Shown: positions 31,906 to 48,013 of the stretch, one piece after another
Position numbering within the stretch: position 1 is the stretch's first letter
Layout of the letters: every line of letters starts with the position of its first letter
Assembly: GCA_021848325.1 (NCBI GenBank)
Contig: JAJZUU010000009.1
Span: 1,580 to 65,579 of the forward strand
DNA: 64,000 bases
Direction: 5' to 3'
Origin: Pseudomonadota bacterium
GTDB lineage: Bacteria; Pseudomonadota; Gammaproteobacteria; Burkholderiales; JAJZUU01
Notes under the pieces: generated by a model
What the model saw: the letters and a program-made list of their open reading frames with translations, nothing else
Database searches by the model: none
What the model was told of the DNA's origin: nothing
Program-made: the position numbers and the translations under genes

Positions 31906-31909
31906 TCCA

Positions 31910-32016: not shown

Positions 32017-32055
32017 GCCCGGATGGCGGAACAGGTAGACGCTACGGACTTAAAA
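32017..32055 (+). pseudogene. leuZ: tRNA-Leu(UAA) 5' half (acceptor, D arm, anticodon 5' stem and loop), separated from its 3' half by the insertion
   Basis: GCCCGGATGGCGGAACAGGTAGACGCTACGGACTTAAAA. Joined to 47821-47868 it gives a perfect 87-nt class II tRNA. Confidence 0.9.
32047..32055. repeat. attL core (GACTTAAAA)
   Basis: Identical 9-mer at 47812-47820. Corresponds to the last 2 nt of the anticodon stem plus the 7-nt anticodon loop. Confidence 0.8.
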
Positions 32056-32137
32056 ACATCTTGTGGTGTAGTATTTTCAACGGTTAGAAGCACATTGCGC
32101 GTAAAAGTGCGTAATCCGTTGAAAAGGAGCCAACACC

Positions 32138-33256: not shown

Positions 33257-33336
33257 CGGTTTCAGGCAAAGCGGGCCGGCGCGGTGGGCAAACACCGGCC
33301 GGCCCTGACCGAAACGCAACTGCAAGGAGTTACGAA

Positions 33337-33762
33337 ATGGCTACCCAAGAGAATATCAAACCAGCGACCGAAGCCGCAGAGCGCGACGCACTCAACGAAG
33401 CCGCAGAGCGCGACGCACTCAACGAAGCAAGCATGGCACTCGGCCGGGCGTGGGGACTTGCTGAAACCCTATGTTTTCAAGCGGGCGAACGCCCCGACGA
33501 TTTCGACGTCGAGGGCGTCATGCGCGTGATTCACTCGCTGGTGGGCCAAGCGAAGGCGAAGGTAGGCGCTCGGGCCGTTGATCTGGAAATCGACGCCGCG
33601 CTGGCGGTTTGTTGTCTGGTCATGGTGGATTCCCAGGAAAGCGCCTATGACCCCGGCTCGTCGTCATCGTGGGCACTTGAGGCTGTACCGAGCGCTATTC
33701 AGCGCGCGAAGGATGCAGTCGACGCTGTGCCCTGGGGCCTCCCTCAACTGAAAGCCGCTTGA
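33337..33762 (+). CDS. hypothetical protein with an internal 9-aa duplication
   Basis: 141-aa ORF with RBS AAGGAG. No family recognised. Followed by a terminator. Confidence 0.55.
   Translation: MATQENIKPATEAAERDALNEAAERDALNEASMALGRAWGLAETLCFQAGERPDDFDVEGVMRVIHSLVGQAKAKVGARAVDLEIDAALAVCCLVMVDSQESAYDPGSSSSWALEAVPSAIQRAKDAVDAVPWGLPQLKAA
33370..33423. repeat. perfect 27-bp tandem duplication (2 copies plus 5 nt of a third)
   Basis: GAAGCCGCAGAGCGCGACGCACTCAAC x2, encoding EAAERDALN twice. Confidence 0.95.
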
Positions 33763-33767
33763 TTCCG

Positions 33768-33789
33768 GCCGCCTGCGGGCGGCTTTTTT
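33768..33789 (+). terminator. intrinsic terminator
   Basis: Stem GCCGCC/GGCGGC with loop TGCG, followed by a T6 run. Confidence 0.75.
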
Positions 33790-33830
33790 ATTCGATGACG
33801 TATAAATAACTTTGTGCCTGTTTGTGATGC

Positions 33831-33859
33831 TTGGCAATCGGTGGCGGTCAAGGTATAGT
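33831..33859 (+). promoter_or_regulatory. sigma-70-like promoter
   Basis: TTGGCA, 17-nt spacer, TATAGT. Confidence 0.6.
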
Positions 33860-33865
33860 CGCTGA

Positions 33866-34067
33866 CAGTATCTCGAAACGAAAACCGCGAAGCCAGACCG
33901 CAACGACTGGTGCAGTACGAGGCAACACCCCCGAGCGAAAGCTAAAGGTGGTGGTAACGGCCCCCAAGGAATGCACCGCCCTTGGAACCGATACCCCCTA
34001 GCCCCCGGCTAGGACAGGCGCTTAGAGATATAGACCGGAGCACTACATGCTGCCGGTCTTTTCATTT
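33866..34067 (+). ncRNA. candidate ~200-nt structured leader/small RNA ending in an intrinsic terminator
   Basis: Lies between promoter 33831-33859 and hairpin GACCGGAGCA...TGCTGCCGGTC plus TTTTCATTT (34033-34067). Internal hairpins CCAAGG/CCTTGG and CTAGCC/GGCTAG. No convincing ORF. Confidence 0.4.
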
Positions 34068-34102
34068 GTGGCGACCGGTAGCACCTCGCAGGAGAGTGCG
34101 CC

Positions 34103-34342
34103 ATGCAAACCACGAACACCCAAGAAGCATTTGAGTTAAGCGACCTTCGCGCCGTCGAAGCGCTCGCCGCCGAAAATCCCAAGTACCTGACTGTATCCAC
34201 GCTGCGCTGGCAGCTTCGCCACCGTGACACCAACGGCCTGGCCGCCGCGTGCGTGCGCGTCGGCAAACGCCTGCTGATTTCCAAGTCGCGTTATGAGCAC
34301 TGGCTGGCGACCCAAACCGAAGCGGCGCGGGGTGTGGCATGA
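34103..34342 (+). CDS. excisionase/AlpA-type helix-turn-helix DNA-binding protein
   Basis: 79 aa with RBS AGGAGA. HTH_17-like sequence LTVSTLRWQLRHRDTNGLAAACVRVGKRLLISKSRYEHWL. Confidence 0.7.
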   Translation: MQTTNTQEAFELSDLRAVEALAAENPKYLTVSTLRWQLRHRDTNGLAAACVRVGKRLLISKSRYEHWLATQTEAARGVA

Positions 34343-34620
34343 GCTACGCCGCCAACATCCCCCCGCAACTTGATTTCAGCAAGCGCGGCATGTGCGCCGC
34401 CCTCAACATGGCCGAGGACGAGTTCACCGACGCCTACCGTAACAAGGAAATCGCGCCCCCGGATAGCGTGCGCTTACGCGAGCCTAGGTGGTCAGTGATG
34501 GCCCTGGGGCAGGAAATCAAGAAACGCACCCCGGCGCATCTGGTGGGGCTGGAAGCCCTGAACTATCAGCTTGAAGCACTGGCTCGCGCCGAACGTGCAG
34601 AAGGGTGGCGACATGACTAA
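34339..34620 (+). CDS. hypothetical protein
   Basis: 93 aa. ATGA overlap with the upstream gene indicates translational coupling. Confidence 0.55.
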   Translation: MSYAANIPPQLDFSKRGMCAALNMAEDEFTDAYRNKEIAPPDSVRLREPRWSVMALGQEIKKRTPAHLVGLEALNYQLEALARAERAEGWRHD

Positions 34621-37081
34621 TGCAACCGCCCGTGCCATTGCGGCGCTACAAAAAGAAATGGCCTCAGGGGAAACTGAGGCCAGCAAAGAAAAAACCACTG
34701 TAAGCGAGAGTGTACCGAGTGCCAAAAATTTAGGCAACGGTCAGTTCGCCGAGCACGGCGCCGCTTTGCTTGCCAACGGCTATTTAATCATTCCAATCAA
34801 GCCGGGCCACAAGCGCCCGGCACTCGACAACTGGCAAACCGCACGACTTGGCGCCGCTGACCTGACCCGATACCCTAACCATGGCGTCGGTGTGCTGTGC
34901 GGGCAAGGTGCCCAGCCCATTGCCGCTATCGACGTGGATACTACGGACGGTGCATTGACTACCCGGTTCGTGGGTTGGTGCCAGGAACACCTCGGCGCCA
35001 CGTGTGAGCGCGTGGGCTTCGCGCCCAAGATCCTGCTCGCCTACCGGGCAGCGTCCGAAGGCTGGGGCAAGGCTACCGGCGCCTGGTTCGAGGACTTGGG
35101 CGGTGCGCGGCACCGGCTGGAAGTGCTGGGCAAGGGTCAGCAGTTCGTGGCCTACCATATCCACCCGGACACGGGCGAGCCCTACGAGTGGGTGGATTTC
35201 TTCGGCGGCCTCGATGCCATGCGGGCCGGCGACCTGCCCATCATCACCGAGGCCCAGGTCGAAGAAGCCCTGCAGGTGTTCGAGGCCATGGCCGAGGAAG
35301 CCGGGCTCGTGCGCGTGTCGGGCAGCAAGACCAAGGCTGGGGGCATGACCTCGGCGCCGGTCGACGACCCGCTCATGGCCTATGAGCCACCGGTCGGCAT
35401 TGACATGGGAGAGGCCCGGCGCCTTGTGTCCTACGTGGATAACGAGGACTACGACACCTGGCTGAAAGTCGGCATGTCGCTGCACCACGAGTTCGACGGC
35501 GACGTGGCCGCGCTGGATTTGTGGGATGAATGGTCGAGCACGGCAACGAACTACGCCAGCCGTGAGGACTTGGAGAAGCGGTGGGATAGCTTCGGCCGAT
35601 CGGGGCGCAACCCGACGACGGCGCGCTGGCTGCTCAAGGTAGCGGGCGAAGCAAAGAAGCCCGACCATGATGCTGGCCGATTAGACGCGGCACGCCGCGA
35701 ACACCAGAAGCAGGAAAACGAGCGCATTGGCAACGGCAACGGCCGTTACCCGACCGTCGAGGTTATCGACCTGAAAGCCGCATTGACCCGATTCGTTTTC
35801 ATGTCGGACGGTTCTCGCGTCGCCGACATCTTCAACCCGCACTACGATCTGGCCTTTTCCGACTGGTCGGCCACGTTCGCAGCCTCGAAGGAGCCGATAT
35901 GGGACGACGAGAAGCGGAAGGAGAAGCTGGTGGCTGTTCCGCTCTTGTGGCGCGCATCGAAGGAGCGCAAGACCGTGGTTTGCCGCACCTTCAAAGCAGG
36001 CGGTGCGCCGGTTCTCAACGATCCCAACGGGAAGCTGGCGCTGAACACCTGGCGCCCGTTTGATCGCACTGCGAACGTGCAGGACATGGCAGCGGCCGGG
36101 GTGGATCTGTTCCTGGATCACGTCGACCTGCTATTCGGGAAGGATGCCCCGCGTTTCCTCGACTGGCTGGCGCATATTGAGCAACGCCCCGGCGAACTCC
36201 CCCATACGGCGTGGCTGCACATTGCCAAGCACTTCGGCCTGGGCCGCAACTGGATGGAATCGGTACTCGCCCGCGTTTGGGCCGGCGCCGTGGCCGCCAA
36301 TCTTGACCTTGTTTCAGTGCTCAAGAAAGACGGCTACAACGGCCGGCTTTCTTGCAAGGTGCTGGCCGTGGTCGATGAAATTCGGGAAGGCGGCCGCGAC
36401 GCGCAGTGGGAGCACTCGGAGAAAATGAAGAGCATCATCACCGAGGAAACGCGGCAGATTAACCCGAAGTACGGGCGTCAGTCGGTAGAGTTCAATGCGT
36501 GCCGCTGGTTGATGTTCTCCAACCACTTGTCGGCCATCCCCCTAGAAGATGGCGACCGACGCATCGAGGTTGTCTATACCGAGGCCCGGCCACGGGGGGC
36601 AGATTACTACGCCAGGCTGTACTCCGTGCTCGACGATGCCATGTTCATCGCCGCCGTAGCGAAGTACCTGGGCGAGCGTGACATTGGCGCATTCAATCCG
36701 GGTGCCCACGCCGTCAATAGCGAATCGAAGAAGGCGGCAACCAAAGCGAGCCAAACCCCAATGGCAGCATGGTGCGAAATGCTGGTCGAGCACTGGCCCA
36801 GTGACCTGATTATGTCGCAGCACCTTTTCGACATCCTGGCGCGCGATGGTGCAGGCGGATCGCTCAACGCCGCACACCGACGAACCTTGGAGCAGCACGG
36901 CGTTGAAGCCCTGGGCAAGCCGTTGAAGGTGGAAGGCCGGCCGGTGCGCGTTTCAATTGTTCGCAACAAGGAACGGTGGAAACAGGCAGAACCTAACAAC
37001 CTGCGCGACGAGTTGGCGAAGGCCAATCCCGGATTGGACAGTGCCCGCGACTACCTGATGGAGTTTGCAGCGTGCGGGTAA
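34613..37081 (+). CDS. replication protein: bifunctional primase-polymerase N-terminal domain + PriCT-like + SF3/D5-type helicase-like C-terminal domain
   Basis: 822 aa. Prim-pol-like GYLIIPIKPGHKRP...GVGVLCG...IDVD, PriCT-like YDTWLKVGMSLHHEF and helicase-like LAVVDEI (Walker B). Start at ATG 34613 with RBS AAGGGTGG (34571 is an alternative). Confidence 0.8.
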   Translation: MTNATARAIAALQKEMASGETEASKEKTTVSESVPSAKNLGNGQFAEHGAALLANGYLIIPIKPGHKRPALDNWQTARLGAADLTRYPNHGVGVLCGQGAQPIAAIDVDTTDGALTTRFVGWCQEHLGATCERVGFAPKILLAYRAASEGWGKATGAWFEDLGGARHRLEVLGKGQQFVAYHIHPDTGEPYEWVDFFGGLDAMRAGDLPIITEAQVEEALQVFEAMAEEAGLVRVSGSKTKAGGMTSAPVDDPLMAYEPPVGIDMGEARRLVSYVDNEDYDTWLKVGMSLHHEFDGDVAALDLWDEWSSTATNYASREDLEKRWDSFGRSGRNPTTARWLLKVAGEAKKPDHDAGRLDAARREHQKQENERIGNGNGRYPTVEVIDLKAALTRFVFMSDGSRVADIFNPHYDLAFSDWSATFAASKEPIWDDEKRKEKLVAVPLLWRASKERKTVVCRTFKAGGAPVLNDPNGKLALNTWRPFDRTANVQDMAAAGVDLFLDHVDLLFGKDAPRFLDWLAHIEQRPGELPHTAWLHIAKHFGLGRNWMESVLARVWAGAVAANLDLVSVLKKDGYNGRLSCKVLAVVDEIREGGRDAQWEHSEKMKSIITEETRQINPKYGRQSVEFNACRWLMFSNHLSAIPLEDGDRRIEVVYTEARPRGADYYARLYSVLDDAMFIAAVAKYLGERDIGAFNPGAHAVNSESKKAATKASQTPMAAWCEMLVEHWPSDLIMSQHLFDILARDGAGGSLNAAHRRTLEQHGVEALGKPLKVEGRPVRVSIVRNKERWKQAEPNNLRDELAKANPGLDSARDYLMEFAACG

Positions 37082-37098
37082 TACCTTGCAGCGAACAC

Positions 37099-37261
37099 GT
37101 AACCGGCCGCCGATTGGTGGCCGTTTTTGTTTGGGCGGTTACGCTGGTTACGCTGGTTACGCTCAATATATAAACGTCAAACCATTCATTTTATTGATGG
37201 TTACTTTTTAGAAACGCCGTAACGAGCGTAACGAGCGTAACCGACCGCCGATTGGTGGCCG
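37099..37261. other. putative replication origin: inverted iteron triplets flanking an AT-rich core
   Basis: GGTTACGCT x3 (37137-37163), a 50-bp AT-rich stretch (37164-37213), then an inverted AGCGTAAC(C/G) x3 (37216-37242). Bracketed by a direct 25-bp repeat GTAACCG(G/A)CCGCCGATTGGTGGCCG (37099 and 37237). Confidence 0.65.
37104..37133 (+). terminator. intrinsic terminator after the replication gene
   Basis: Stem CGGCCGCC/GGTGGCCG (one G.U) with loop GATT, followed by TTTTTGTTTG. Confidence 0.65.
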
Positions 37262-37278
37262 AATTTCCGCGCAGTACG

Positions 37279-37520: not shown

Positions 37521-37688
37521 ACGGCCGCAACGGATCAACTGACCGCTGGCAATCAAGCAACAGTGCGCCCTCAGCCGGCGTGTGCGTAATCCCGAGCGTA
37601 AAGGGCATGGTGCACGTACCTCGTAGGGGTGCCCGTACCTTTCTGTCTGACAAATACAGTCATCCCATGACCACCGGACAGAAACGAC

Positions 37689-37889
37689 ATGCCCAAGCTG
37701 ATAACCCTCGAAGAAGCTGCCGCCCGATGCGGCATTTCGCGCCGGACGGTGGATCGCTACGTCGAGCGCGGGCAGTTCGTGGCTCTCTATCAACTCCCTA
37801 CCGGCCACCTTCGCGTTGATGAGCACGACCTCAACGCTTGGCTGGCCGCATGCCGCACCGACAACCAACCGAAGGAAGCCACCCAATGA
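37689..37889 (+). CDS. excisionase/MerR-type helix-turn-helix DNA-binding protein
   Basis: 66 aa, LITLEEAAARCGISRRTVDRYVERGQF...LRVDEHDLNAWL. Confidence 0.7.
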   Translation: MPKLITLEEAAARCGISRRTVDRYVERGQFVALYQLPTGHLRVDEHDLNAWLAACRTDNQPKEATQ

Positions 37890-38782
37890 GAACCGCAGCC
37901 ATCGACAAGGAACTCGCCAAAGAGCACGAACAGCTTGGCGAGGCCCGAGCAGCAGCAGCCGAAGCCGCTGAGAAGCTGTCCACCGAACCCGGCAACAAGA
38001 AACATCGTTTGGCCGTGCTGGAAGCGCAGGCACGAGCCGATGAAATCAACGTGACCATCGAGGCCCTTAACCTGGCCCGCGAGCAGGCGGTCAAATTCGA
38101 TCAGTCCGAGGAAGGCCAGGCCACCCGCGCCAAGCGGGCGTCGATGGTGGCAACCGTGCGCGATGCCAATGCACAAATGGTTGCAGCAGCGGCCGCCGTC
38201 GACGAGGTGCTGGCCGCACTGCGCACCTGCGCCGTGCAATTCGCCGACGCTCGCTTGGCCGCTCAAAGTGCTAGTGCCGCCTATCTCGACCTGAACGAGA
38301 GCGACCTCGACGCCCGGATGCACGACTACCAAGCCCTGAACCACGAACCCGGCAACGTGGCGCACGCCTTGGCATTGACACTGCACGACATTGTTACTGC
38401 CACCGGACTGGATTGCAGCCACTTCCTCACGTTCAACCCCTACACGCTGACGCCCAACAGTGGCGTGGGCGGTGAATTCTTGCGAACCCTTGAACAAGGA
38501 GCACGGGCCAACACCCTGCGCGCTGTCACAACCCTGGCACATATCGAGGCAGTGCATACCGGCACCTATGTGCCGCCACCGCCCATGGAGCAGCCCAGAC
38601 CCAACCTGCACGCCGACCACTTCATCGCCGCGAACTTCAACGAACTGATGGAGCACGTTGCTGCAACCGGCGAAGAGCCAGCCCTCGACCCGGACGAAAC
38701 GCACACGATTGCAAAGGATTGGGACGAATACTTGGCTGCAACCTCGGGCCTCGAATCGCCCAAGGTGCTGCACCAGGAGTAA
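37886..38782 (+). CDS. hypothetical alanine-rich, predominantly helical protein (scaffold-like by composition only)
   Basis: 298 aa. ATGA overlap with the upstream HTH gene. N-terminal coiled-coil-like region. Confidence 0.6.
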   Translation: MRTAAIDKELAKEHEQLGEARAAAAEAAEKLSTEPGNKKHRLAVLEAQARADEINVTIEALNLAREQAVKFDQSEEGQATRAKRASMVATVRDANAQMVAAAAAVDEVLAALRTCAVQFADARLAAQSASAAYLDLNESDLDARMHDYQALNHEPGNVAHALALTLHDIVTATGLDCSHFLTFNPYTLTPNSGVGGEFLRTLEQGARANTLRAVTTLAHIEAVHTGTYVPPPPMEQPRPNLHADHFIAANFNELMEHVAATGEEPALDPDETHTIAKDWDEYLAATSGLESPKVLHQE

Positions 38783-38788
38783 CCAGCG

Positions 38789-38995
38789 ATGAATTACACC
38801 CCCGTCAATGTGCCGCTGCAAAGCCCCGAGCGCGTGGTCTATCCGCACGAGGTGACACCACCGCGTGAGTGTGAGGTCAGCAGGCCGAGCCCGACAGAGG
38901 CAGCGACATCCTGGTCGGGCTTCCACAAGCGGGGGTGCTATGAGCGAAGAAGCCAAGCGATACATCGTGCGCGAATACCTCGATCTTCACCCTGA
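38789..38995 (+). CDS. hypothetical small protein (uncertain)
   Basis: 68-aa ORF with a good RBS (AGGAG 9 nt upstream), but it overlaps the next ORF by 56 nt. Confidence 0.3.
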   Translation: MNYTPVNVPLQSPERVVYPHEVTPPRECEVSRPSPTEAATSWSGFHKRGCYERRSQAIHRARIPRSSP

Positions 38996-39122
38996 CAAAG
39001 AATTCCGGCGCGCGGTCTTTGCGTTGCTGCTTCTCGACAAACCTGAGCACCTAGACACGCTCTACGACATGGCCGTGCGCTTCGGCATGTGCGGCGAGAT
39101 TGTCGAGGGCGTTTTCATTTAA
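38940..39122 (+). CDS. hypothetical small protein
   Basis: 60 aa (MSEEAKRYIVREYLDLHPDKEF...) with RBS GGGGGTG. Confidence 0.45.
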   Translation: MSEEAKRYIVREYLDLHPDKEFRRAVFALLLLDKPEHLDTLYDMAVRFGMCGEIVEGVFI

Positions 39123-39134
39123 GGAGTCTTAACC

Positions 39135-39578
39135 ATGGCAATCATCGACGCAGCAACGCAGTTTTCCAACGCTCAAACCGTGACCGGTGCGAGCGCTGTC
39201 CTTTCCGCCAATACCCTTGATGCGCTACAGAACCGCGATATGGGCGGTGGTAAATCTTTTCAGGTGCTGTTTCAGGTCGGCACCGCATTTGCCGGCCTGA
39301 CGGCCCTCGAAATGCAGATCATCACGGCCGACGATGCCGGCCTGACCACGAACGTGAATGTGCTGGGCAGTACGGGTGCCATTCCAGTGGCTTCGCTGAC
39401 GGCGGCCGCCAGGTTCTACGCCAGCATCAACCCGCGCATCGGCAACAAGGGGCAGCGCTACATCGGCTGCCGCTACATCCCGACCGGCACCGGCACGGCT
39501 GGCACGATCAGCGCGCAAATCGGTGGCGACGTGGGCGACTTCAAGCCGGTTTATCCAACCGGCTATTCCGTGGCTTAA
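39135..39578 (+). CDS. Bbp16-like (phage capsid cement/decoration-type, jelly-roll) protein
   Basis: 147 aa with RBS AAGGAG. Pattern FSNAQTVTGASAVLSANTLD...RDMGGGKSFQVLFQV...ALEMQIITADD...RYIGCRYIPTGTGTAG resembles the Bbp16 family as I remember it. Not verified by search. Confidence 0.5.
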   Translation: MAIIDAATQFSNAQTVTGASAVLSANTLDALQNRDMGGGKSFQVLFQVGTAFAGLTALEMQIITADDAGLTTNVNVLGSTGAIPVASLTAAARFYASINPRIGNKGQRYIGCRYIPTGTGTAGTISAQIGGDVGDFKPVYPTGYSVA

Positions 39579-39589
39579 GGGGAACAATC

Positions 39590-40117
39590 ATGGACGTTGG
39601 AGGCGCAGGGATATTTTTACAGGCGGCCGGGGCCGTCAATTCGGCTATCGGCAGCTACTACAGCGCGAAGTCCCAGCAAAGCAGCCTGCGCTTCGCCGCA
39701 GACATCGCCGACATCAATGCGCGCATTTCCGAAATCGGGGCGCAATCTGAATTGATGAAGGGCGAGCGCGAGATTGGCGCCCTCACGATGCGTTACGGCC
39801 AGATGAAGTCCACGCAGCGCGCCTCACTCGCAGCAAACGGCGTGGATTTGGGCGAAGGCAGCGCGGCCGAGATCCAAGCCTCTACCGACATCCTCAAGGA
39901 AATCGACGCCAACACGCTGAACTCCAACGCTGTGCGCAGCGCCTGGGGCTATCGCACACAGGCGACCAACTACCAGAATGACGCCATCTTAAAGCGTGCC
40001 ACGGCCAGCACTATCGACCCACTTGGGGCGGGCCTCACGTCACTGCTGGGCAGCGCTGGCAGCGTGGCGAGCAGTTGGTACAACTACAACAAGGCGAGCG
40101 GCCAGCAGGTGCGGTGA
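39590..40117 (+). CDS. T7 gp14-like internal virion protein candidate
   Basis: 175 aa. Gly/Ala-rich hydrophobic N- and C-termini flank a long Q/A/S-rich helical region, with the size and composition of podovirus inner-core proteins. Confidence 0.45.
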   Translation: MDVGGAGIFLQAAGAVNSAIGSYYSAKSQQSSLRFAADIADINARISEIGAQSELMKGEREIGALTMRYGQMKSTQRASLAANGVDLGEGSAAEIQASTDILKEIDANTLNSNAVRSAWGYRTQATNYQNDAILKRATASTIDPLGAGLTSLLGSAGSVASSWYNYNKASGQQVR

Positions 40118-40629
40118 TGAGAACCATCGGGCTTTCTGCAAAAGGGAAGGTGGTAGGCGAATACGTGCCATCGGCAAAACTGACCTTTGCCCAGGTAGAG
40201 GAAATGCGCGCCCTGGCAACAGGCGGCCTCACATACACCGAAATTGGCGCCAGGTTTGGTGTTTCCAGATCGAGCGCGGCCAGGGCCATCAAGGGCGAAA
40301 CCTGGGCAGTTCCGGTAGCAAGGCTGGTGCAGCAGATCGAAACCGAGGACTTGGCCGCACTCACTTCTGGCGAGGGGCGGCTGCTGATTGCCAAAAAGGC
40401 CGGGGCGACTACCGGGTCAGTTGAACGAGCCATGAAGAAGACCGGCATTGCCTGGGATGGAAATATCAGGAAGCAGAAGCATTCCCATTGCAAGCAGGGG
40501 CACCCCCTGGAGGGTCAGAACCTGATTGTGAGGAAAAACGGCACCCAAGCCTGCCGAGAGTGCAGCCGGGAACGGGGGCGCACATTTGCACGGAGAAAGC
40601 GCGATGACGCTCGCCGTGGCCGTGAATGA
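40117..40629 (+). CDS. HTH DNA-binding protein with C-terminal Cys/His zinc-ribbon-like motif
   Basis: 170 aa. AKLTFAQVEEMRALATGGLTYTEIGARFGVSRSSAARAIKG, and HCKQGHPLEGQNLIVRKNGTQACRECSRER. Start overlaps the previous stop by 1 nt. Confidence 0.6.
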   Translation: MRTIGLSAKGKVVGEYVPSAKLTFAQVEEMRALATGGLTYTEIGARFGVSRSSAARAIKGETWAVPVARLVQQIETEDLAALTSGEGRLLIAKKAGATTGSVERAMKKTGIAWDGNIRKQKHSHCKQGHPLEGQNLIVRKNGTQACRECSRERGRTFARRKRDDARRGRE

Positions 40630-40834
40630 CGCCGGTTTGCGCATCGGTGAGGATCATCCGAACGCCAAGCTGACCGATGCCGAAGTGGAACGCATCCGCA
40701 GCCTGCACGAGGAAGGCATGGGCTACGAGGCTATCGCCGAAAAATACGAAGTAAGCAAGTGGTGCATCGGGCGTATTTGCCGATACGAACGCCGGGGGCA
40801 AACCACTGCACGCTGGAAAACAATCGAGGAGTAA
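40604..40834 (+). CDS. small HTH DNA-binding protein (paralogue of the N-domain of 40117..40629)
   Basis: 76 aa, HPNAKLTDAEVERIRSLHEEGMGYEAIAEKYEVSKWCIGRICRYERR. RBS GGAGA upstream of ATG 40604. Confidence 0.55.
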   Translation: MTLAVAVNDAGLRIGEDHPNAKLTDAEVERIRSLHEEGMGYEAIAEKYEVSKWCIGRICRYERRGQTTARWKTIEE

Positions 40835-40839
40835 AACCC

Positions 40840-43449
40840 ATGCCAACCGTACCCCGTTTCGACGGCCCGCAAGTAACGCCCAACACCTTGCCCCAGGTGC
40901 GAGTCGATACGCCTGAGTTCCACAACTACGCCGCCGACCAGGCGCAGCAATTAGGGCGGGCCATGAGCAACTTCGGCGGCCACATGACCGAGATTGCCAC
41001 CGACGCGCAAAACGAAGCCAACAAGACTGTGGCCAAGGACATCGACACGCAAGCCACGGCGGCTATCGGTGACGTGCTGTACAACCCGCAGAGCGGTTAC
41101 ATGGTCAAGGAAGGCAAGGACGTGGTCGCCGGCTATGGCGATGCAACCGAAGCCCTCAAGCAAGTGCGCCAGAAGGCCCTCGATGGGGTGCAGAACACGG
41201 CAGTGCGCCAAATGGTCGAGCCGGTCATCAATGCCCGGATGCAGAATGCCCTCGAAACGATCAACCGGCATTCAGGCACCGAAACTCGCCGCTATCAGGT
41301 GCAGACCTCGGATTCGCGGGCCATCGTCACGTTGCAGGACGCTGCCTTCAACTACGACGATGACAAGCGCTTCAACGAAGCCCTGGCCGTCACGCGGGAT
41401 GAAACCAACAACCTAGCCAAGCTGCAAGGCTGGGACGAAGCCACGGCACGCTTGCAGGCGCAGAAATACGCCGACACCGGCAACCGCATGCGCTACGAAG
41501 CCTGGGCAATCAAAGACCCGGTGGCCGCCTTCGCCCACTTCCAGCAAAACGCCGAGGGAATAAGCCCGCTGGTGCGCGACAACATCGGCCGCCAGCTTTT
41601 CCAGCATGCTGCCCCGGTGCTCGCCACCATTGTGAATCAGACAGGCGGGCCAGGCGTGGTGCCCTCTGCACCGGGCGACATGACAGCGCCGCGCGGCATC
41701 CGCAACAACAACCCTGGCAACGTCATGCGCGGCAGCGACACGTGGCAGGGTGAGGTGCAAGGCAACGACCCGCGCTATGCCAGCTTTGCGACGCCCGAGG
41801 CCGGCATACGGGCCATGGGCAAGACCCTCATCAACTACCAGGATAAGCACGGCATCAACACCGTGGAAGGCGTCGTGTCGCGCTGGGCGCCAGCCACCGA
41901 GAACAACACGGCCGCCTACGTCGCCACCGTGGCGAAGGAAATGGGCGTCAAGCCCGATGCAAACCTCGATTTGCACGACCCCGCAACGCTCAACAAGCTG
42001 ACCCGCGCTATGATTCGCGTCGAGAACGGCAAGCAGCCGTACACGGACGATCAGATCGCGCTGGGTCTGGCTGCCGCCACCGGCAACACCCCACTGCCAA
42101 CGGCGGCCAGTGCCAAGCGCGACCCCAATGCCTCTACCGGCATCGGCCTGGTTGACGGCCTGCCCGCCGACTGGAAGCTGCATGTGTTGCAGCTTGCGCG
42201 CAGCCAGGCGCATCAAGACATGGCCGAGGCCCGCGAATCGCTGCGCGGCCGGGTGCAGGATGCCAGCGCCGAGTATATGGCGAATGGCTTTGCATCCAAC
42301 CCGCCGAACGAGGCCGAATTTATCCGCGCTTATGGACAGGCCGAGGGCGCCGGCCGGTACCGTGATTTCCAAAGCGTCGCCACGCTGGGTCAAACCCTGC
42401 AACAGGTACGCACGTTGCCGAACGCCGCGCTCAACGACTTGTTGAAATCCTCGAAGCCCACACCGGGCGACGGCTTCGCAGTGCGGCAGCACAACTTCGA
42501 GATTCTTTCGGGGGCTATCGACACCGTGGTGAAGGCTCGCACCCAAGACCCGGTGGCCTACGCACTGACCGGCAAGAGCTACGGCCTTCGCCCGATTCAG
42601 CGCTTCGATGATCCACAGGGCACGGCCCAGGAGCTTGCCCGTCGAGCGGCCGCAGCGCCGCAAATGTCGGCCGACTACAACACGCCGCCGCGCCTCTTGT
42701 CCAACGCCGAGGCCAGCGCACTATCGGCCACGCTCAAGGCCAGTCCGGTGGAAGGGCAAAAGCAACTGCTGGGCACCATTGCAAAAAGCATCAACGACAT
42801 GGGCCTGCTCAAGGCGACCATGCAGTCCATTGCGCCAGATTCGCCCACGGTAGCCGTGGCCGGCATCTATCAGGCGCGCGGCCTGCGCACGACGGAAAAC
42901 CGCGACGTGGCCGACCTCATCCTGCGCGGGCAGGCCATCCTTACCCCGAACAAAAAGGAGGACGGCAGCGGCCACATGGGCGGCGCGTCGCTCATCAAGA
43001 TGCCCGAGGAAAAGCTGCTGCTATCCGACTGGACAAGCGCGACCGGCGACGCTTTCAAAGGCCGCGAGCAGGCCGCCGACCTGTTCATGCAAACCGCCAA
43101 GGCCATCTATGCGGCCCGCAGCGCCGAGGAAGGCGACTACTCGGGCGTGATCGACTCGAAGCGCTGGAAGGCCGCCATCAACCTGGCAACGGGCGGCATC
43201 GAGAGCCACAACGGCAGCAAGATCGTGATGCCCTACGGCGTGCCCTATGACAAGTTCCAGAATGCGCTGCAGGGCCAGGTCGACCGCATCGTGAAGGACG
43301 GCGGCGCACTAAACACCTCGACGCGCGAAATGATGCGTCTGCCACTGGAAAACGTCGGCGACGGCCGCTATCTGTTCCGGCGAGGCACCGGCTATCTGGT
43401 GGGCAAGGATGGCCGCCCGGTGGTGGTCGATTTGAACGGGGGCCGCTGA
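40840..43449 (+). CDS. large virion-associated (internal/ejection-type) protein candidate with GIRNNNPGN motif domain
   Basis: 869 aa with RBS GAGGAG. N-terminus MPTVPRFDGPQV... and central PRGIRNNNPGNVMRGSDTWQGE...YASFATPEAGIRAM, both recalled from phage structural proteins. Confidence 0.55.
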   Translation: MPTVPRFDGPQVTPNTLPQVRVDTPEFHNYAADQAQQLGRAMSNFGGHMTEIATDAQNEANKTVAKDIDTQATAAIGDVLYNPQSGYMVKEGKDVVAGYGDATEALKQVRQKALDGVQNTAVRQMVEPVINARMQNALETINRHSGTETRRYQVQTSDSRAIVTLQDAAFNYDDDKRFNEALAVTRDETNNLAKLQGWDEATARLQAQKYADTGNRMRYEAWAIKDPVAAFAHFQQNAEGISPLVRDNIGRQLFQHAAPVLATIVNQTGGPGVVPSAPGDMTAPRGIRNNNPGNVMRGSDTWQGEVQGNDPRYASFATPEAGIRAMGKTLINYQDKHGINTVEGVVSRWAPATENNTAAYVATVAKEMGVKPDANLDLHDPATLNKLTRAMIRVENGKQPYTDDQIALGLAAATGNTPLPTAASAKRDPNASTGIGLVDGLPADWKLHVLQLARSQAHQDMAEARESLRGRVQDASAEYMANGFASNPPNEAEFIRAYGQAEGAGRYRDFQSVATLGQTLQQVRTLPNAALNDLLKSSKPTPGDGFAVRQHNFEILSGAIDTVVKARTQDPVAYALTGKSYGLRPIQRFDDPQGTAQELARRAAAAPQMSADYNTPPRLLSNAEASALSATLKASPVEGQKQLLGTIAKSINDMGLLKATMQSIAPDSPTVAVAGIYQARGLRTTENRDVADLILRGQAILTPNKKEDGSGHMGGASLIKMPEEKLLLSDWTSATGDAFKGREQAADLFMQTAKAIYAARSAEEGDYSGVIDSKRWKAAINLATGGIESHNGSKIVMPYGVPYDKFQNALQGQVDRIVKDGGALNTSTREMMRLPLENVGDGRYLFRRGTGYLVGKDGRPVVVDLNGGR

Positions 43450-44729
43450 TGAGCTTCGACCTTTTCCCGAATGAGCAAGGGGCCGCGCTGCTGAATGCGG
43501 CGCGCCATCCTTCCACCACGCCCGAGCCCGGCGCCTTCGACAACTTCTTCAGCGGCGCCGGGCAATACACCATGCGCAGCCTGGCCGAAGCAGGCCGGGC
43601 CGTGTCCCTGGCCGGTGCTGTTGTGCCCATGGCAATCGACAAGATGACTGAGGGCGACAATTTCAGCGGCAAGAGCCTGACCGACCGCTACTTTGAAACC
43701 CACGACGAGGTGTTCAACAACGCCGTCGACTACTGGACGCCGAAGCCCGGCGAGGTGGGCGCAGCCGGCCAGATTACTGGGCAGCTTGCCGGGGGCATCT
43801 TGCAGGCTGTTGTGCATCCGGCCTTGTTGGTCGGCACCGCCGCGCTGTCGCCGGCCGAGGACTTGGTGCGCGAGGGCGTGGATGCGAGCACGGCCACCAA
43901 GGTGGGCGTCATCCAGGGCGCGGGCGCCGCCATCGGCTTGAAAATGCCGTTTCTCGGGCAGACGCTCGCCACGCGCGTGCTGTCTGGCGCGGGCGGCAAC
44001 CTGTTACAGGGCACGGCAGGCGCGGCCGCATCGTCGGGCGTGCTCAAGGCCGAGGGCTACGACCAGCAGGCCGAGCGATTCAACCCGTGGGATATGCGCG
44101 CCCGCATACTCGACACGATGCTTGGGGCCGCTTTCGGCGGCCTGGCGCACATCGGTGCGAAAGGCGAAGCCAAGGCGCCCAAGCTGACCCCGACCGACGA
44201 GGCCGCGCTGTTGGTGGCGAATCAGGCGCGGCATATCGAGGACGTGACCCCGCAGGGCCGGCCGGCGACCGATGCCGACGCAACGATGCACGCCGATGCG
44301 ATGCGCCAGGCCGTCGAGCAGGTGCTGCGCGGCGAGCCGGTCACTATCGACGGCCTGGTCAAGGACATGCACATGGTGCCCGACGAGGCACTGACACGGC
44401 AGCGCACCGAAGTGACCGACGAGGCCCAGCGCATCGCGGCCCTGGAAGCACCCATCGAGGCCCCCATCCTGCCCAAGATCGAGCCCGGCGCGCCCGTGGC
44501 TGATGCCATCCCGGCCGAGCACAACCCGGCGAGCCTCAAGGCACGGCAGGCTGTTGTGGATCGCCCCGACCTGACCATTCCGACCAACCGCACCGACGCG
44601 GACGGCAACCCCATCACCCTGCGCGCCGCCGACGCGCTGGCCCTGGCTGATGCCGATGTGGCGCACGCCCAGGCTACCGCCGCCAGCGTGTTCAAAACGG
44701 CAGCCCATTGCCTTCTAGGAGCCCTGTAA
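43449..44729 (+). CDS. hypothetical Gly/Ala-rich protein with hydrophobic segments (ejection-protein-like)
   Basis: 426 aa. Start overlaps the previous stop. Contains GAAGQITGQLAGGILQAVVHPALLVGTAAL and GVIQGAGAAIGLKMPFLG stretches. Confidence 0.5.
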   Translation: MSFDLFPNEQGAALLNAARHPSTTPEPGAFDNFFSGAGQYTMRSLAEAGRAVSLAGAVVPMAIDKMTEGDNFSGKSLTDRYFETHDEVFNNAVDYWTPKPGEVGAAGQITGQLAGGILQAVVHPALLVGTAALSPAEDLVREGVDASTATKVGVIQGAGAAIGLKMPFLGQTLATRVLSGAGGNLLQGTAGAAASSGVLKAEGYDQQAERFNPWDMRARILDTMLGAAFGGLAHIGAKGEAKAPKLTPTDEAALLVANQARHIEDVTPQGRPATDADATMHADAMRQAVEQVLRGEPVTIDGLVKDMHMVPDEALTRQRTEVTDEAQRIAALEAPIEAPILPKIEPGAPVADAIPAEHNPASLKARQAVVDRPDLTIPTNRTDADGNPITLRAADALALADADVAHAQATAASVFKTAAHCLLGAL

Positions 44730-47258
44730 ATGGCCGACCCTTTTCGCTGTATTGCCGCGCTCAACAAGGCCGCAGGCAAGGAACTGAACCCGGACGAAGC
44801 CCTTGAGGTTTTCGACCGCATCCAGCGCACGGCGCGCGACTTGGCAGCCGGCCGCATCCAACCCGAGGGCGGGGCGAATCTTTCCAGCCCGGAAGGAATC
44901 ATGCAGCACGCTGCCGAACTTGCGGCCAAGGAGTTGATCCACGACAAAATCCGGCAGCAGCACAACACGCACCTGCGCATTGCCATCCTGGGGGAGCGCA
45001 AGGCCGAGGTCGAAGCAATGAAGGGTGGGGGCATCGGCGACGTGGATGCAGTGCGTCGCCTCATCGCAAACGACCCGGACGGCCGCGCGGATCGCTTCTC
45101 GCTCGAAGCCCGCGTGCACGGCGTTTCCAACCTGCTGAAATCGCGCATTCAGGACACGTGGGCGGCCCTGGGCAACGACTTCCTGGGCTTCATCCAGCAG
45201 CACGACAAAATCCGCGACCTCATCACCGAAATGAAGGGCCAGGACAGCGGCAATGCGCTGGCGAAGAAGGGCGCGGAAGCCTGGGCAAAGGCCGCCGAGG
45301 AATCACGCGCATGGTTCAACGAGAAGGGCGGCGAAATCGGCCACCTCGACGACTGGGGCTTCCCCCAGCACCACAGCCAGGAGCACGTCGCCAAGGCCGG
45401 CGTGGATGCCTGGGTGGCCGATGTATATCCAGCGCTCAAGCTGGACAAGTACGTCGACCTTGCAGGCAATCGCATGACCGAAACCCAAATCAAGGAACTG
45501 CTCAAAAATGCCTGGTGGTCAATTGCCACCAACGGCGCCAACAAGATCGAGCCCGGCAAGGCGCGCGGCCACGGCGCCCGCGCGAACCGCCACGCCGAAG
45601 AGCGCCAGATCCATTTCAAGGATGCCGACGCGGTGCTCGCCTATTGGGCCAAGTACGGGGAAAAGACCTTTCCCGACATTCTGGTCGGCCACCTTGAACA
45701 AATGGCAAAGGACATCGGCTTCATCGAGCATTTCGGACCGAACCCGGACGGCGCCTATCGGGTGCTGCGCGACGAAGCCGAGCAGGCCGCGAAAATGTCA
45801 GACCCGGCATCGCTCGACAAGATCGACAAGGAACTGGCGCGCCTCGACAACCTCTACGACTACGCGGCCGGGCGCGCCAAACCCGTGGCGAACCGTGCAG
45901 TGGCGGGCGTGTTCGACGCGCTGCGCAACCTCAATTCAGCCGGCAAGCTGGGCAGCGCATTTTGGGCCTCGTTCTACGGCGACAAGGTCATGCTCGAAGC
46001 CATGGGCCGCGTCAATAAGCTGCCCATGTGGCAAAGCTGGTACAACGAGGTGCGCTTGCTCAACCCGTTCAACGGTGCCGAGCGCCGCCAGTTGCAGCGG
46101 CAAACCCTCATGCTCGATTACATGAAGTCGGCCATGTACCGCTTCGGCGACGACCTGGGCCGCTCATCCTGGACGGGCAAAATGTCGAACGCCGTCATGA
46201 AGCTGTCGGGCATGTCGGCAATCAACGAGTGGCGGCGCGGTGCCTTCGGCCTCACGATGATGGATAGCATCGGCCACGAGGTGAGCACAAAGACCTGGGC
46301 CGAAGTCGGCCAGCAGGACATCCACCTGCTCAAATCGTTCGGCCTCACCGAGGCGGATTGGAATATCTGGAAGCTGGCCCAGCTTGAGGACTACGGCCAC
46401 GGCAACAACACCATGCTGACCCCGGAGGCCATCGCCAAGATTCCCGACGAGGCCCTGGCGCAGATTGGCATAGAGAACCCGGCGCAGGCCCGGCGCGAGG
46501 CCGTGGTCAAGTACCTGGGCGCGCTGCATTCCGAATCGCTCAACGCCGTGATCGAGCCCGGATGGAAAGAGCGCGCCAGGATGGTGGGCGGCTTGCAGCG
46601 CGGCAATCTGCGCGACGAAATCACGCGCAGCTTCTGGCAGTTCAAGGCGTTCCCGATTACACAATTCGAGCGCCTTCGGGACATCGGCCTCTCGCGGCCG
46701 AACGCGGGCGGCAAGGCCCAGTTCATCGGCGCGGTGCTGCTCATGCAAACCATGGCCGGCGCCATGATGCTGCAAACGCAATCGCTGCTATCAGGGGAAG
46801 ATCCCCGCCCAATGGATGATTGGAAATTTTGGCTTGCCGCTTTCATCAAGGGCGGCAGCCTGGGTATCTACGGCGACTTCCTCTACTCGCAGAGTGGCAC
46901 GACGCGCTACGGCAGCGGCCCGCTGGAAGTGCTGGCCGGCCCGACCATCGGGTCGGCGGCCGATGCGGTCACGGCACTGGTGCAGGCGGGTAACGCCGTT
47001 GCAGCCGGCAAGGATACGCACCTGGGCGCCAAGCTGCTGAACATCGCCAAGGGCTACATCCCCGGTCAGAACCTTTGGTACACCAGGGCGGCCACCGACC
47101 ACATCATCTTCCAGAATGCGCAGGAAGCGCTCTCGCCGGGCTACCTGGCGAACATGCGGGCCAATTCGGTGCGGCAGTTCAAACAGGACTGGTGGTGGGC
47201 GCCGGGTGAATTTACGCCGGATCGCGCGCCCGACATGGCGAACGCGCTAGGGAGGTGA
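44730..47258 (+). CDS. large hypothetical virion-associated protein candidate
   Basis: 842 aa. Start immediately follows the previous stop. C-terminal hydrophobic segments (FIGAVLLMQTMAGAMMLQ, FWLAAFIKGGSLGIYGDFLY). No family recognised. Confidence 0.5.
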   Translation: MADPFRCIAALNKAAGKELNPDEALEVFDRIQRTARDLAAGRIQPEGGANLSSPEGIMQHAAELAAKELIHDKIRQQHNTHLRIAILGERKAEVEAMKGGGIGDVDAVRRLIANDPDGRADRFSLEARVHGVSNLLKSRIQDTWAALGNDFLGFIQQHDKIRDLITEMKGQDSGNALAKKGAEAWAKAAEESRAWFNEKGGEIGHLDDWGFPQHHSQEHVAKAGVDAWVADVYPALKLDKYVDLAGNRMTETQIKELLKNAWWSIATNGANKIEPGKARGHGARANRHAEERQIHFKDADAVLAYWAKYGEKTFPDILVGHLEQMAKDIGFIEHFGPNPDGAYRVLRDEAEQAAKMSDPASLDKIDKELARLDNLYDYAAGRAKPVANRAVAGVFDALRNLNSAGKLGSAFWASFYGDKVMLEAMGRVNKLPMWQSWYNEVRLLNPFNGAERRQLQRQTLMLDYMKSAMYRFGDDLGRSSWTGKMSNAVMKLSGMSAINEWRRGAFGLTMMDSIGHEVSTKTWAEVGQQDIHLLKSFGLTEADWNIWKLAQLEDYGHGNNTMLTPEAIAKIPDEALAQIGIENPAQARREAVVKYLGALHSESLNAVIEPGWKERARMVGGLQRGNLRDEITRSFWQFKAFPITQFERLRDIGLSRPNAGGKAQFIGAVLLMQTMAGAMMLQTQSLLSGEDPRPMDDWKFWLAAFIKGGSLGIYGDFLYSQSGTTRYGSGPLEVLAGPTIGSAADAVTALVQAGNAVAAGKDTHLGAKLLNIAKGYIPGQNLWYTRAATDHIIFQNAQEALSPGYLANMRANSVRQFKQDWWWAPGEFTPDRAPDMANALGR

Positions 47259-47347
47259 GCGGCGCGGCTACGAGGTCAGACACTAGCCGCTTCTCAGGCC
47301 GGGGTGACACTGCTCGCCCGGCCGCCGCTTTGAAATTGTAGCCTTGT

Positions 47348-47645
47348 TGGTGCCTGGGACGGGAATCGAACCCGTATAGCTTTCGCCGAGGGATTTTCGT
47401 CACACTACGGCTTTCGCCGCCAGCCTTCGCCGTTCGTGCGCTGGACTATGCCTTCACCATGGCGCTGCGCGCTGTAGGTGCCCCCCGTCTAGTCTCTACA
47501 CCTTCCCCTTGCGAGGCTTGGCTCGGCGTTGCCTCGGCCCGAAGGTCAGGGGTTTCACCGAATTTGAGGGGATTCACGCGGGCGCTTTCGCTCCCCGGTG
47601 CTCAATGTTTAAGTCCCTTGTGTCTACCAATTTCACCACCCAGGC
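47348..47645 (-). tRNA. tRNA-Leu (anticodon UAA) gene interrupted by a group I intron
   Basis: Exons 47645-47611 and 47397-47348 join to an 85-nt class II cloverleaf with all four stems Watson-Crick paired and loop CTTAAAA. Confidence 0.88.
47398..47610 (-). ncRNA. group I intron (bacterial tRNA-intron type, IC3-like), 213 nt, no ORF
   Basis: P1 CTTAA/TTGAG places a U.G wobble at the 5' splice site, and the intron ends in G. Core strings TCAAATTCGGTGAAACC, GGCAACGCCGAGCCAAGC and GAAGGTGTAGAGACTAGACGG are present. Confidence 0.85.
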
Positions 47646-47657
47646 GGCGAAACGCGT

Positions 47658-47686
47658 ATTTTACCGGAGAGTGCGCAGCGCGTAAA
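47658..47686 (-). promoter_or_regulatory. sigma-70-like promoter for the element-borne tRNA-Leu
   Basis: On the minus strand: TTTACG, 17-nt spacer, TAAAAT. The -10 ends about 12 nt upstream of the tRNA 5' end. Confidence 0.55.
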
Positions 47687-47811
47687 ATGCGCGTAACACA
47701 CAGCACAATTCACCACAAAACAACACGCCAGGATGACACCCCAACACAACAAAAGCCCCCGTTTTCATTGCGTTACGTTGCGTTGCATTGAGTGGGTTTG
47801 CGTTGGGCCTT

Positions 47812-47820
47812 GACTTAAAA
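47812..47820. repeat. attR core (GACTTAAAA)
   Basis: Identical to 32047-32055. Confidence 0.8.
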
Positions 47821-47868
47821 TCCGTTGACCGAAAGGTCGTACCGGTTCGATTCCGGTTCCGGGCACCA
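47812..47868 (+). pseudogene. leuZ: tRNA-Leu(UAA) 3' part (anticodon loop, 3' stem, variable arm, T arm, acceptor, CCA)
   Basis: GACTTAAAATCCGTTGACCGAAAGGTCGTACCGGTTCGATTCCGGTTCCGGGCACCA. Complements the 5' half at 32017-32055. Confidence 0.9.
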
Positions 47869-48013
47869 TCCTTGGCCCACCTAGCAGTCGACTCCCTCTC
47901 CCGCTACTCCCTCCCGTAGACCGCGCAGCCGCTTTGTCTTGGGCAAGTCCGACACTGCGTTGCGATCGCGGAAAAGGTTTTTCAACTAAGGCCTTGGGCC
48001 CAGGCGGGCGCTT

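Follow-up and report, generated by a model that had tools for sequence, protein, structure and literature searches.

A podovirus-type ejection module in a capsid-less integrative element of a Burkholderiales bacterium

A 64,000-nt stretch of DNA from a Pseudomonadota bacterium assigned to the Burkholderiales (JAJZUU01; GenBank assembly GCA_021848325.1, contig JAJZUU010000009.1, positions 1,580 to 65,579), hereafter called the window, was found to contain an element of 15,764 bp that interrupts the host gene for tRNA-Leu(UAA) (leuZ-like) at the anticodon loop. Four of its genes encode, in the same order, homologues of the internal-virion (ejection) proteins gp14-gp17 of phages of the epsilon15/phiV10 type, and these genes form the complete internal-virion (ejectosome) module of an epsilon15/BPP-1-type podovirus, the presence of their products in a virion being predicted from sequence. 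A scan of all the open reading frames (ORFs) of the element with Pfam, PHROG and NCBIfam revealed neither capsid, portal or terminase genes nor genes for adaptor, nozzle, tailspike or lysis. The element is probably a helper-dependent phage satellite that exploits temperate podoviruses of the epsilon15/BPP-1 type and brings an ejectosome of its own. Elements of this type, which combine a backbone like that of P4 or of the phage-inducible chromosomal islands (PICIs) with an ejectosome module and lack genes for shell, tail and packaging, appear to be undescribed.

The ejection module and its glycosidase domain

An earlier note on this DNA had proposed that four ORFs encoding proteins of 175, 869, 426 and 842 amino acids (aa) resembled a podovirus ejectosome, a reading that was supported by sequence, synteny and fold. 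All four ORFs were recovered with the limits that it had given (Table 1), and the same genes were called independently on metagenome copies; the metagenomes that contain the element are ERZ27237461, ERZ27237470, ERZ27237050 and SRR13189623. With E-values of 5e-27 to 5e-232, the PHROG matches of the four proteins go well beyond what chance would give. The 175-aa protein, which the note had likened to T7 gp14, matched phrog_418, and its score with the Pfam family T7_gp14 (PF24072) was just under the curated threshold (24.8 bits for a gathering threshold of 27 bits, E 2.4e-5, residues 8-171 of 175); homologues in two related elements, L176 and L009, carry a precomputed match to this Pfam family, and the window protein is 32% identical to phiV10 p17. 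One-to-one, collinear correspondence with phiV10 p17-p20 (equivalent to epsilon15 gp14-gp17) was observed for the four window genes, the 426-aa protein clustering with p19, and the best annotated relatives of the 842-aa protein came from Uetakevirus (phiV10 and SPN1S among others), with which tblastn showed 38-39% identity across 98% of its length. The gene order in phiV10 is portal, a small ORF, p09 (annotated as a protease), major capsid protein, a Bbp16-like gene, two small ORFs, adaptor, nozzle, internal virion protein, p17-p20 and tailspike, and the same module order was found at more than 50 podovirus loci.

An AlphaFold2 (AF2) model of the 842-aa protein, based on a 41-sequence alignment, was all-helical, with a predicted local distance difference test score (pLDDT) of 75.8 and a predicted template modelling score (pTM) of 0.78. 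When this model was compared with the PDB using Foldseek, the only probable match was 8vb2_A, from the pre-infection ejectosome of PhiM1 (E 4e-3, probability 0.96, low template modelling (TM) score), whereas the comparison with BFVD returned the 'internal virion protein' of Vibrio phage VP2 (E 1e-28, TM 0.73-0.78) and many T7/phiKMV-like models named 'internal virion protein D' or 'internal core protein' (E 1e-5 to 1e-7). As modelled, the fold of the 842-aa protein is that of 'internal virion protein D' of the T7 type. Sequence searches of the PDB with the 842-, 426- and 175-aa proteins and with the 842-aa family profile yielded no match, and a scan of genome contigs with the 869-aa protein yielded only two distant matches, both to its hydrolase domain. 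None of the four proteins was assigned to a non-virion family, and none was identified as a portal or a capsid protein. In T7 and P22, a trans-envelope channel is built by the ejection proteins (review PMC8954989).

The 869-aa protein contains a central domain with the motif GIRNNNPGN (aa 282-425, nt 41683-42114), which the earlier note had associated with phage virion proteins of unclear enzymatic function, and to which a function can now be assigned. This domain matched PDB entry 7q47 (E 2e-24) and, in 9vvp, the N-terminus of the chain 'Gp29', of 1,295 aa (E 1e-25). The former is the endolysin catalytic domain from Hafnia phage Enc34 (PHA02564 family), a lysozyme-like glycosidase with the signature Trp79, Tyr95 and Glu131 (PMC8943055). 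In the alignment with the 869-aa protein, the three signature positions correspond to the identical residues W349, Y360 and E395, and on this evidence the domain is read as an Enc34-type peptidoglycan glycosidase with its catalytic signature intact. The Enc34 endolysin has a C-terminal membrane anchor, whereas here the domain is embedded in a large virion-internal protein. A signal-peptide-like hydrophobic stretch was seen in none of the four ejection proteins when the first ~30 residues were inspected by eye; if this impression is correct, the glycosidase would reach the cell wall only via ejection from a particle or after lysis, so that an intact hydrolase of the wall would be understandable chiefly as an enzyme that is packaged and then ejected. 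The enzymatic domain is explained by a structure from 2022, and the proteins belong to known families.

The module of the epsilon15-like phages (Uetakevirus), to which T7 gp14/gp15/gp16 are more distant, has the same four homologues in the same order with the small gp14-like protein first, and it likewise includes one large protein with a peptidoglycan hydrolase domain and a last protein with a fold like that of internal virion protein D. Unlike in those phages, the module of the element has no adaptor or nozzle upstream and no tailspike downstream, and it is interrupted by ORFs with HNH and helix-turn-helix (HTH) motifs. In T7, a lytic transglycosylase occupies the N-terminus of the last protein, gp16, whereas in the element the Enc34-type hydrolase lies in the middle of the second protein.

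From 39135 to 47258 the genes are closely packed on one strand as a single block, and the main start codons are preceded by Shine-Dalgarno-like GGAG/AAGGAG motifs. The translational coupling proposed for all four genes held for the 869- and 426-aa genes (ATGA overlap at 43449) and for the 426- and 842-aa genes (TAA-ATG at 44729/44730), but there is no direct coupling of the gp14-like and 869-aa genes, between which two further ORFs lie (40117-40629 and 40604-40834). The inserted ORFs matched phrog_826/1492, HNH endonuclease (E 1e-10 and 3e-8), with weak matches to Pfam HTH_38/HTH_28; by sequence they look like free-standing homing-endonuclease genes or derivatives of such genes, and they may have a role in DNA cutting for packaging. 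HTH ORFs related to them were found at other positions in seven related elements. The four ejection genes add up to 6,948 nt, or 44% of the element, close to the half of the coding capacity that had been estimated. As for the long hydrophobic Gly/Ala-rich segments attributed to the 426- and 842-aa proteins, moderately hydrophobic stretches were present in each, but these were marginal candidates for transmembrane helices (Kyte-Doolittle means over 19 residues reaching 1.54 at most), and a Gly+Ala content of 22-28% is ordinary for a genome of 62% GC.

Capsid-less relatives and links to capsid assembly

In agreement with the earlier note, which had described the core complex as being without a capsid to hold it, no ORF of the element corresponded to a capsid, portal or terminase; for the small terminase, the PHROG scan of the element ORFs gave only phrog_2538 at E 0.014. 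No homologue of Sid, Psu, Delta, Ppi, CpmA/B or TerS was detected in the element, and the 10 proteins tested with PADLOC gave no relevant defence match, nor was there an NCBIfam family match. The 298-aa protein encoded near the start of the late block was considered as a hidden homologue of a capsid or scaffold protein and rejected as a capsid: its AF2 model is a helical bundle (pLDDT 82.5), not HK97-like, for which there was no significant fold match in the PDB and Foldseek gave generic hairpin matches only; no phage match was found for the protein, which showed no relation to phiV10 p09 and to the scaffold-related family (A2) described below. Only 29 representatives of its family were found among 1.8 billion proteins in an exhaustive search, and it may be an assembly or scaffold factor, for which it is a candidate.

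Hundreds of homologues of the 842-aa protein were found, more than 100 of them full length at 55-96% identity, and many on contigs of 15-17 kb. Their contexts, obtained from look-ups, 79 metagenome loci and 80 IMG/VR loci, were classified with profiles built here, the flanks of the relatives being read to 10 kb at most. At least 11 distinct capsid-less elements were recognized (the window element, L009, L011, L013, L023, L044, L045, L095, L096, L132 and L176), with a layout of a replication module, a few small genes at most, the ejection module, a few small ORFs and, where visible, host genes. No capsid, portal, large terminase or tail gene was present in the 10 related elements within the stretches read, and no nozzle, adaptor or tailspike was present in the 11 elements, within the same stretches for the 10 relatives. 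Four types of replication module occur among them: Prim-Pol/D5; PriCT_2 with AAA_25; DnaB alone; and a DnaD/DnaT-like initiator with a DnaB-/DnaC-like helicase loader. In L011 an integrase gene lies at the far end; in L013, a smaller relative, the part read comprises the ejection module, AlpA and a DnaB-like helicase, and otherwise just a few ORFs of less than 120 aa; and L176 adjoins AbiE and toxin-antitoxin genes. The complete podoviruses (more than 50 loci) have adaptor, nozzle, an optional GNAT or small internal protein, the gp14-like protein, the three large proteins and the tailspike, with capsid genes upstream where the sequence extends that far (L015 and L178; PF19821), and almost all of the IMG/VR relatives were complete phages. 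Plasmid-borne homologues of the 842-aa protein proved to belong to complete epsilon15-like prophages.

In a neighbour-joining (NJ) tree of the 842-aa family, a rough distance tree, the capsid-less elements fell in at least three places among the complete podoviruses: the window element, L023, L009 and L011 formed one clade, L013 was sister to the phages L015 and L017, and L044 and L045 formed a distant clade. L132, found after this tree had been built and outside it, probably represents another lineage, its 842-aa homologue being 39% identical to that of the window. Among complete phages, L015, L177 and L178 came closest to the window element, with identities of 60-63% in the 842-aa protein and 41-44% in the 426-aa protein. 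The module is a mosaic, the 869-aa protein of the window aligning end to end with phiV10 p18 but over only ~270 aa with its counterparts in these three phages.

Capsid-associated genes accompany the module in several of the elements. The Bbp16-family protein of the window scored 57 bits with PF21190 (cut-off 27.1) and matched phrog_427 at E 5e-17; its homologues are named 'Bbp16 family capsid cement protein' in RefSeq, and members were found in three elements (the window, L095 and L096). The Bbp16 family, known from phage BPP-1, consists of decoration proteins that need an HK97-fold lattice. A family of 170-212 aa was found in L009 (4032-4628), L011 (6117-6629) and L096 (3463-4101), and it resembles the C-terminal half of a head-assembly protein whose gene, in phages, lies just upstream of that for the capsid (hhalign with phiV10 p09, the annotated protease, E 1e-5, probability 82%; with the counterpart in L178, E 2e-5, 76%), the segment GLGNHPD..FAQQARR being common to the family and the phage proteins. 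In SaPIs, the capsid-binding C-terminus of CpmB is common with the helper scaffold. By analogy, this scaffold-related family is a candidate capsid size- or assembly-redirecting factor.

Other small genes recur next to the ejection module. A PC4-like gene (PF02229) lies 3' of the 842-aa homologue in L013 (10005-10223), L045 (12834-13052; assigned by BLAST clustering with the copy of L013) and L132 (12513-12971), and in L045, L023 and phage L015 the gp14-like gene comes after a gene for a GNAT acetyltransferase. Both seem to accompany the module in a conserved manner. As L045 and L023 keep the GNAT gene of phage L015, a complete set of head-travelling proteins was kept. The end of L009, the Rhodocyclales element, matches the PtaRNA1/R1162-like antisense RNA families weakly (13356-13433, below the gathering score) and may hold a type I toxin-antitoxin or copy-control RNA.

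Boundaries, replication region and tRNA-Leu gene of the element

The features of the element are listed in Table 1. The 9-bp core GACTTAAAA is present at both junctions, and rejoining the two separated halves of the host tRNA gene yielded a canonical 87-nt tRNA-Leu(taa) according to ARAGORN. Conserved host genes lie outside the element on both sides, uvrC, pgsA, tRNA-Gly and tRNA-Cys on the left and an aminotransferase gene and uvrB on the right. With its own integrase, a primase-helicase, origin-like iterons and an attachment (att) core at each end, the element is integrative. A contig of 16,010 bp from another assembly (L007; GCA_016276955.3, JAEHJW030008753.1) corresponds by coordinate arithmetic to window positions ~31929-47938, that is, to the element plus ~125 bp on each side, a break pattern that would be expected if occupied and empty integration sites coexist in the sample. 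In an earlier version of that assembly, JAEHJW02, contigs of complete podoviruses (L032 and L091) were found, with an 842-aa homologue 34-35% identical.

Table 1. Features of the 15,764-bp element and its junctions, in window coordinates
Feature	Position	Strand	Basis
Host tRNA-Leu(UAA), 5' half; its 3' end is the attL core GACTTAAAA (32047-32055)	32017..32055	+	Sequence reading
Tyrosine integrase, 372 aa	32138..33256	+	NCBIfam Xer/integrase models, E 2e-19, below equivalog cut-offs
Three small ORFs (141, 79 and 93 aa)	33337..34620	+	No Pfam, PHROG or PADLOC match
Primase-helicase, 822 aa from ATG	34613..37081	+	Prim-Pol, PriCT_2 and DUF5906/D5-like domains
Terminator-like hairpin followed by origin-like region	37104..37245	+	Terminator scan and sequence reading
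HTH_17 (AlpA/excisionase-type) small DNA-binding protein, first gene of the late block	37689..37889	+	Pfam PF12728, E 7e-11
298-aa all-helical protein, specific to these elements	37886..38782	+	AF2 model
Bbp16-family capsid cement/decoration-type protein, 147 aa	39135..39578	+	PF21190, phrog_427
gp14-like small internal virion protein, 175 aa	39590..40117	+	phrog_418 'internal virion protein', E 5e-27
170-aa protein with HTH and HNH-nuclease motifs	40117..40629	+	Overlaps the gp14-like stop as ATGA
76-aa HTH protein, truncated paralogue of the 170-aa ORF	40604..40834	+	
869-aa ejection protein, phiV10 p18/epsilon15 gp15 type	40840..43449	+	phrog_992, E 7e-121, full length
426-aa ejection protein, phiV10 p19/epsilon15 gp16 type	43449..44729	+	phrog_1145, E 2.5e-31
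842-aa ejection protein, phiV10 p20/epsilon15 gp17 type	44730..47258	+	phrog_684 'virion structural protein', E 5e-232
Element tRNA-Leu(UAA) gene with group I intron after U34	47348..47645	-	Exon 1 47645-47611, intron 47610-47398 (213 nt), exon 2 47397-47348
attR core GACTTAAAA (47812-47820) and displaced host tRNA-Leu(UAA) 3' half (47821-47868)	47812..47868	+	Sequence comparison

The proteins in the 90% cluster of the integrase are named tyrosine recombinase or integrase and come from Ottowia, Azonexus and metagenome-assembled genomes of Rhodocyclaceae. The three small ORFs that follow include a promoter-like site (33831-33859) in their region, and the 141-aa ORF contains a perfect 27-bp tandem duplication (33369-33422) that doubles the peptide EAAERDALN. 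For the primase-helicase, whose length of 822 aa is that of the gene call on the metagenome copy, the Pfam matches PF09250, PF08707 and PF19263 were all over the cut-off, and phrog_1156 (DNA primase) matched at E 3.5e-71. Directly 3' of this gene, a strong terminator-like hairpin is followed by three tandem GGTTACGCT iterons, an AT-rich stretch of ~50 bp and inverted copies of the CGTAACGAG/CGTAACC-type iteron, a layout that resembles a replication origin and suggests a putative origin function. Between this region and the late block (37300-37530) there are three GC-rich palindromic copies of the CGCGCGTGCGCATGCGCGCG type, including an exact 29-nt repeat at 37410/37471, and ACACCTGAAAAA(A/G)G likewise occurs three times. 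The interval yielded no sigma-70-like promoter, and its motifs may be activator binding sites or a packaging signal. The late block runs in the order HTH_17, 298-aa protein, a 60-aa ORF, Bbp16-family protein, gp14-like protein, the HNH/HTH ORFs and the 869-, 426- and 842-aa proteins. Long antisense ORFs of 391 and 416 aa, at 37790-38965 (-) and 41413-42663 (-), overlap real genes and are the usual artefact of high-GC DNA.

At neither junction is the host tRNA-Leu(UAA) rebuilt; instead, the element brings its own tRNA-Leu(UAA) gene, preceded by a promoter-like site 13 nt upstream (47686-47658). This gene is split by a group I intron (Rfam RF00028, 37 bits, E 2e-6, below the gathering score), and the spliced product is an 85-nt tRNA-Leu(taa) in ARAGORN, 77% identical to the host tRNA-Leu(UAA). 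The intron takes away the target sequence of the integrase in the replacement gene, and its position after U34 is that of the classical cyanobacterial and plastid tRNA-Leu intron. Neither a tRNA nor a group I intron match was found in L095, L096, L009 and L013, and this cargo is therefore lineage-specific. A degenerate second copy of the tRNA-Leu 5' half, directly after tRNA-Cys (31905-31953), shares 76% identity with 32012-32060 and is similar to the tRNA of the element in the part for the anticodon stem; it has the appearance of a scar left by an earlier integration or recombination event at this site.

A probable helper-dependent satellite and the competing explanations

The recurrence of the same architecture in at least 11 elements strengthens the view that the window element is a satellite; its helper dependence, its packaging and the reason why it carries the module are inferred. 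While resident in the anticodon loop, the element would supply its own intron-containing tRNA-Leu. Induction of, or infection by, a related podovirus would lead to its excision by the integrase and the HTH proteins and to its replication from its own primase-helicase and iteron origin. The late block would then be expressed and its products built into procapsids made of helper capsid, portal and tail proteins, into which the helper terminase would package the element DNA. In the next cell, the gp14-like protein would open the outer membrane and the 869-aa protein would cut the peptidoglycan with its Enc34-type glycosidase domain, while the 426- and 842-aa proteins would continue the channel as far as the inner membrane and across it. 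Why the element should bring its own module is a matter of speculation: a divergent ejectosome might bypass entry exclusion encoded by the helper, since a satellite must enter cells that hold the helper and that often block the entry of helper-like DNA, or it might give the satellite control over the delivery and fate of its own DNA.

Several observations weigh against this reading. No helper phage, excised or packaged form, or particle was observed, and a scan of viral contigs for the 22-nt regulatory repeat of the element, made in search of a helper, gave no match. The element has no recognizable small terminase, cos/pac site or helper-derepression gene. The scaffold-related family is absent from the window element, and its link to the phage proteins has an hhalign probability of only 76-82%, obtained with a three-sequence profile. 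With flanks of 10 kb, the integrase end is out of view in several relatives, and the NJ tree is a rough distance tree. To our knowledge, no known satellite family encodes ejection proteins, so that there is no precedent. A description of satellites carrying ejection proteins was not found in the full-text literature searched, outside which most subscription journals fall.

Among the alternatives, a use of the module in the resident cell, for entry exclusion or anti-phage interference with incoming ejectosomes or as another envelope-spanning apparatus, is in our opinion unlikely. Defence cargo is frequent in satellites and prophages, and L176 adjoins AbiE and toxin-antitoxin genes; against this, no PADLOC or NCBIfam family was matched, and no signal-peptide-like N-terminus was seen by eye although one of the proteins is a wall hydrolase with its signature intact. 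The module is moreover kept complete, including GNAT or gp14-like partners, as in virions, the 842-aa proteins share 60-63% identity with homologues from functioning phages, and the Bbp16-like and scaffold-related genes that accompany the module would be left unexplained. It is quite improbable that the element is a decaying prophage remnant, that is, a temperate podovirus that has lost its head, tail and lysis genes and whose ejection genes no longer have a current function. The homology and collinearity of the module with those of complete temperate podoviruses, which also carry integrases, and the interruption of the operon by the HNH/HTH ORFs would be compatible with decay, but the four genes are intact and have more than 100 full-length homologues at 55-96% identity, the element is bounded exactly by att cores, and its replication by a primase-helicase is of the P4/PICI satellite type and unlike that of phiV10. 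The reduced layout, furthermore, recurs in at least 11 elements with four replication modules and at least three tree positions, and random loss would not repeatedly spare the largest genes.

Poisoning of helper virions by replacement of their core proteins, as the main role of the ejection proteins in a satellite, has in our estimate a low probability as well, of the same order as that of decay. Such a role would be in keeping with the helper-interference functions common in known satellites (SaPI, P4 and PLE) and with the mosaic relation of the module to those of the closest phages (842-aa protein 60-63% identical, 869-aa protein aligned over ~270 aa); four conserved, enzymatically intact genes of 6.9 kb would nevertheless be a costly route to interference, and the same proteins would also enter the particles of the satellite itself, so that they must work for delivery. 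We consider it very improbable that the element is self-transmissible without a helper, using a domesticated ejectosome, with its outer-membrane pore, wall hydrolase and channel across periplasm and inner membrane, as an envelope-crossing device for DNA delivery, for example by means of membrane vesicles or between touching cells. Even less credence is given to a complete minimal virus whose capsid protein went unrecognized among the unknown ORFs or within one of the large proteins. Function could not be assigned to the ORFs of 141, 79, 93, 298 and 60 aa, which leaves some room for it, but the 298-aa protein is an all-helical bundle, the Bbp16 decoration protein requires an HK97-fold lattice (as known for BPP-1), there is no portal or terminase, and the smaller relative L013, in the part read, has only AlpA, the DnaB-like helicase, the ejection module and ORFs of less than 120 aa.

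Read as a helper-dependent satellite, the element has much in common with the P4-like satellites and PICIs: a size in the range of 10-16 kb, integration in a tRNA gene, a tyrosine integrase, an HTH_17/AlpA-type protein, a primase-helicase, and the lack of capsid, tail and terminase large-subunit genes. Its capsid decoration-type gene can be compared with Psu of P4, and the scaffold-related gene of its relatives with CpmB of SaPIs, by analogy and with no homology to Psu or CpmB detected. Unlike P4 and the PICIs, its presumed helpers are podoviruses, and 44% of the element encodes ejection proteins. The phage satellites known so far take over capsids, tails or both, and some of them make a capsid themselves. 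With the capsid-forming PICIs (cf-PICIs), the element has in common that the satellite makes part of the particle and steals the rest; the cf-PICIs, however, make capsid, portal and connectors and steal tails, whereas for the head the element appears to do the converse, stealing shell and tail and bringing the internal proteins.

If delivery without a helper were true, it would be a transfer route distinct from conjugation, transduction and transformation. For the satellite, the value of the module could lie in getting past the entry exclusion of a resident helper or in deciding what becomes of the injected DNA. Elements of this kind are missed by virus-detection pipelines that rely on hallmark genes. 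Divergent ejectosomes working in a foreign capsid would represent a natural experiment on a machine that is poorly understood, one that defines which interfaces matter (portal and capsid interior). A recurrent family that spends about 44% of its genome on ejection proteins, with all genes for shell, tail and packaging discarded, implies that selection can act on the ejectosome, and that it can be swapped, as a determinant of who enters which cell.

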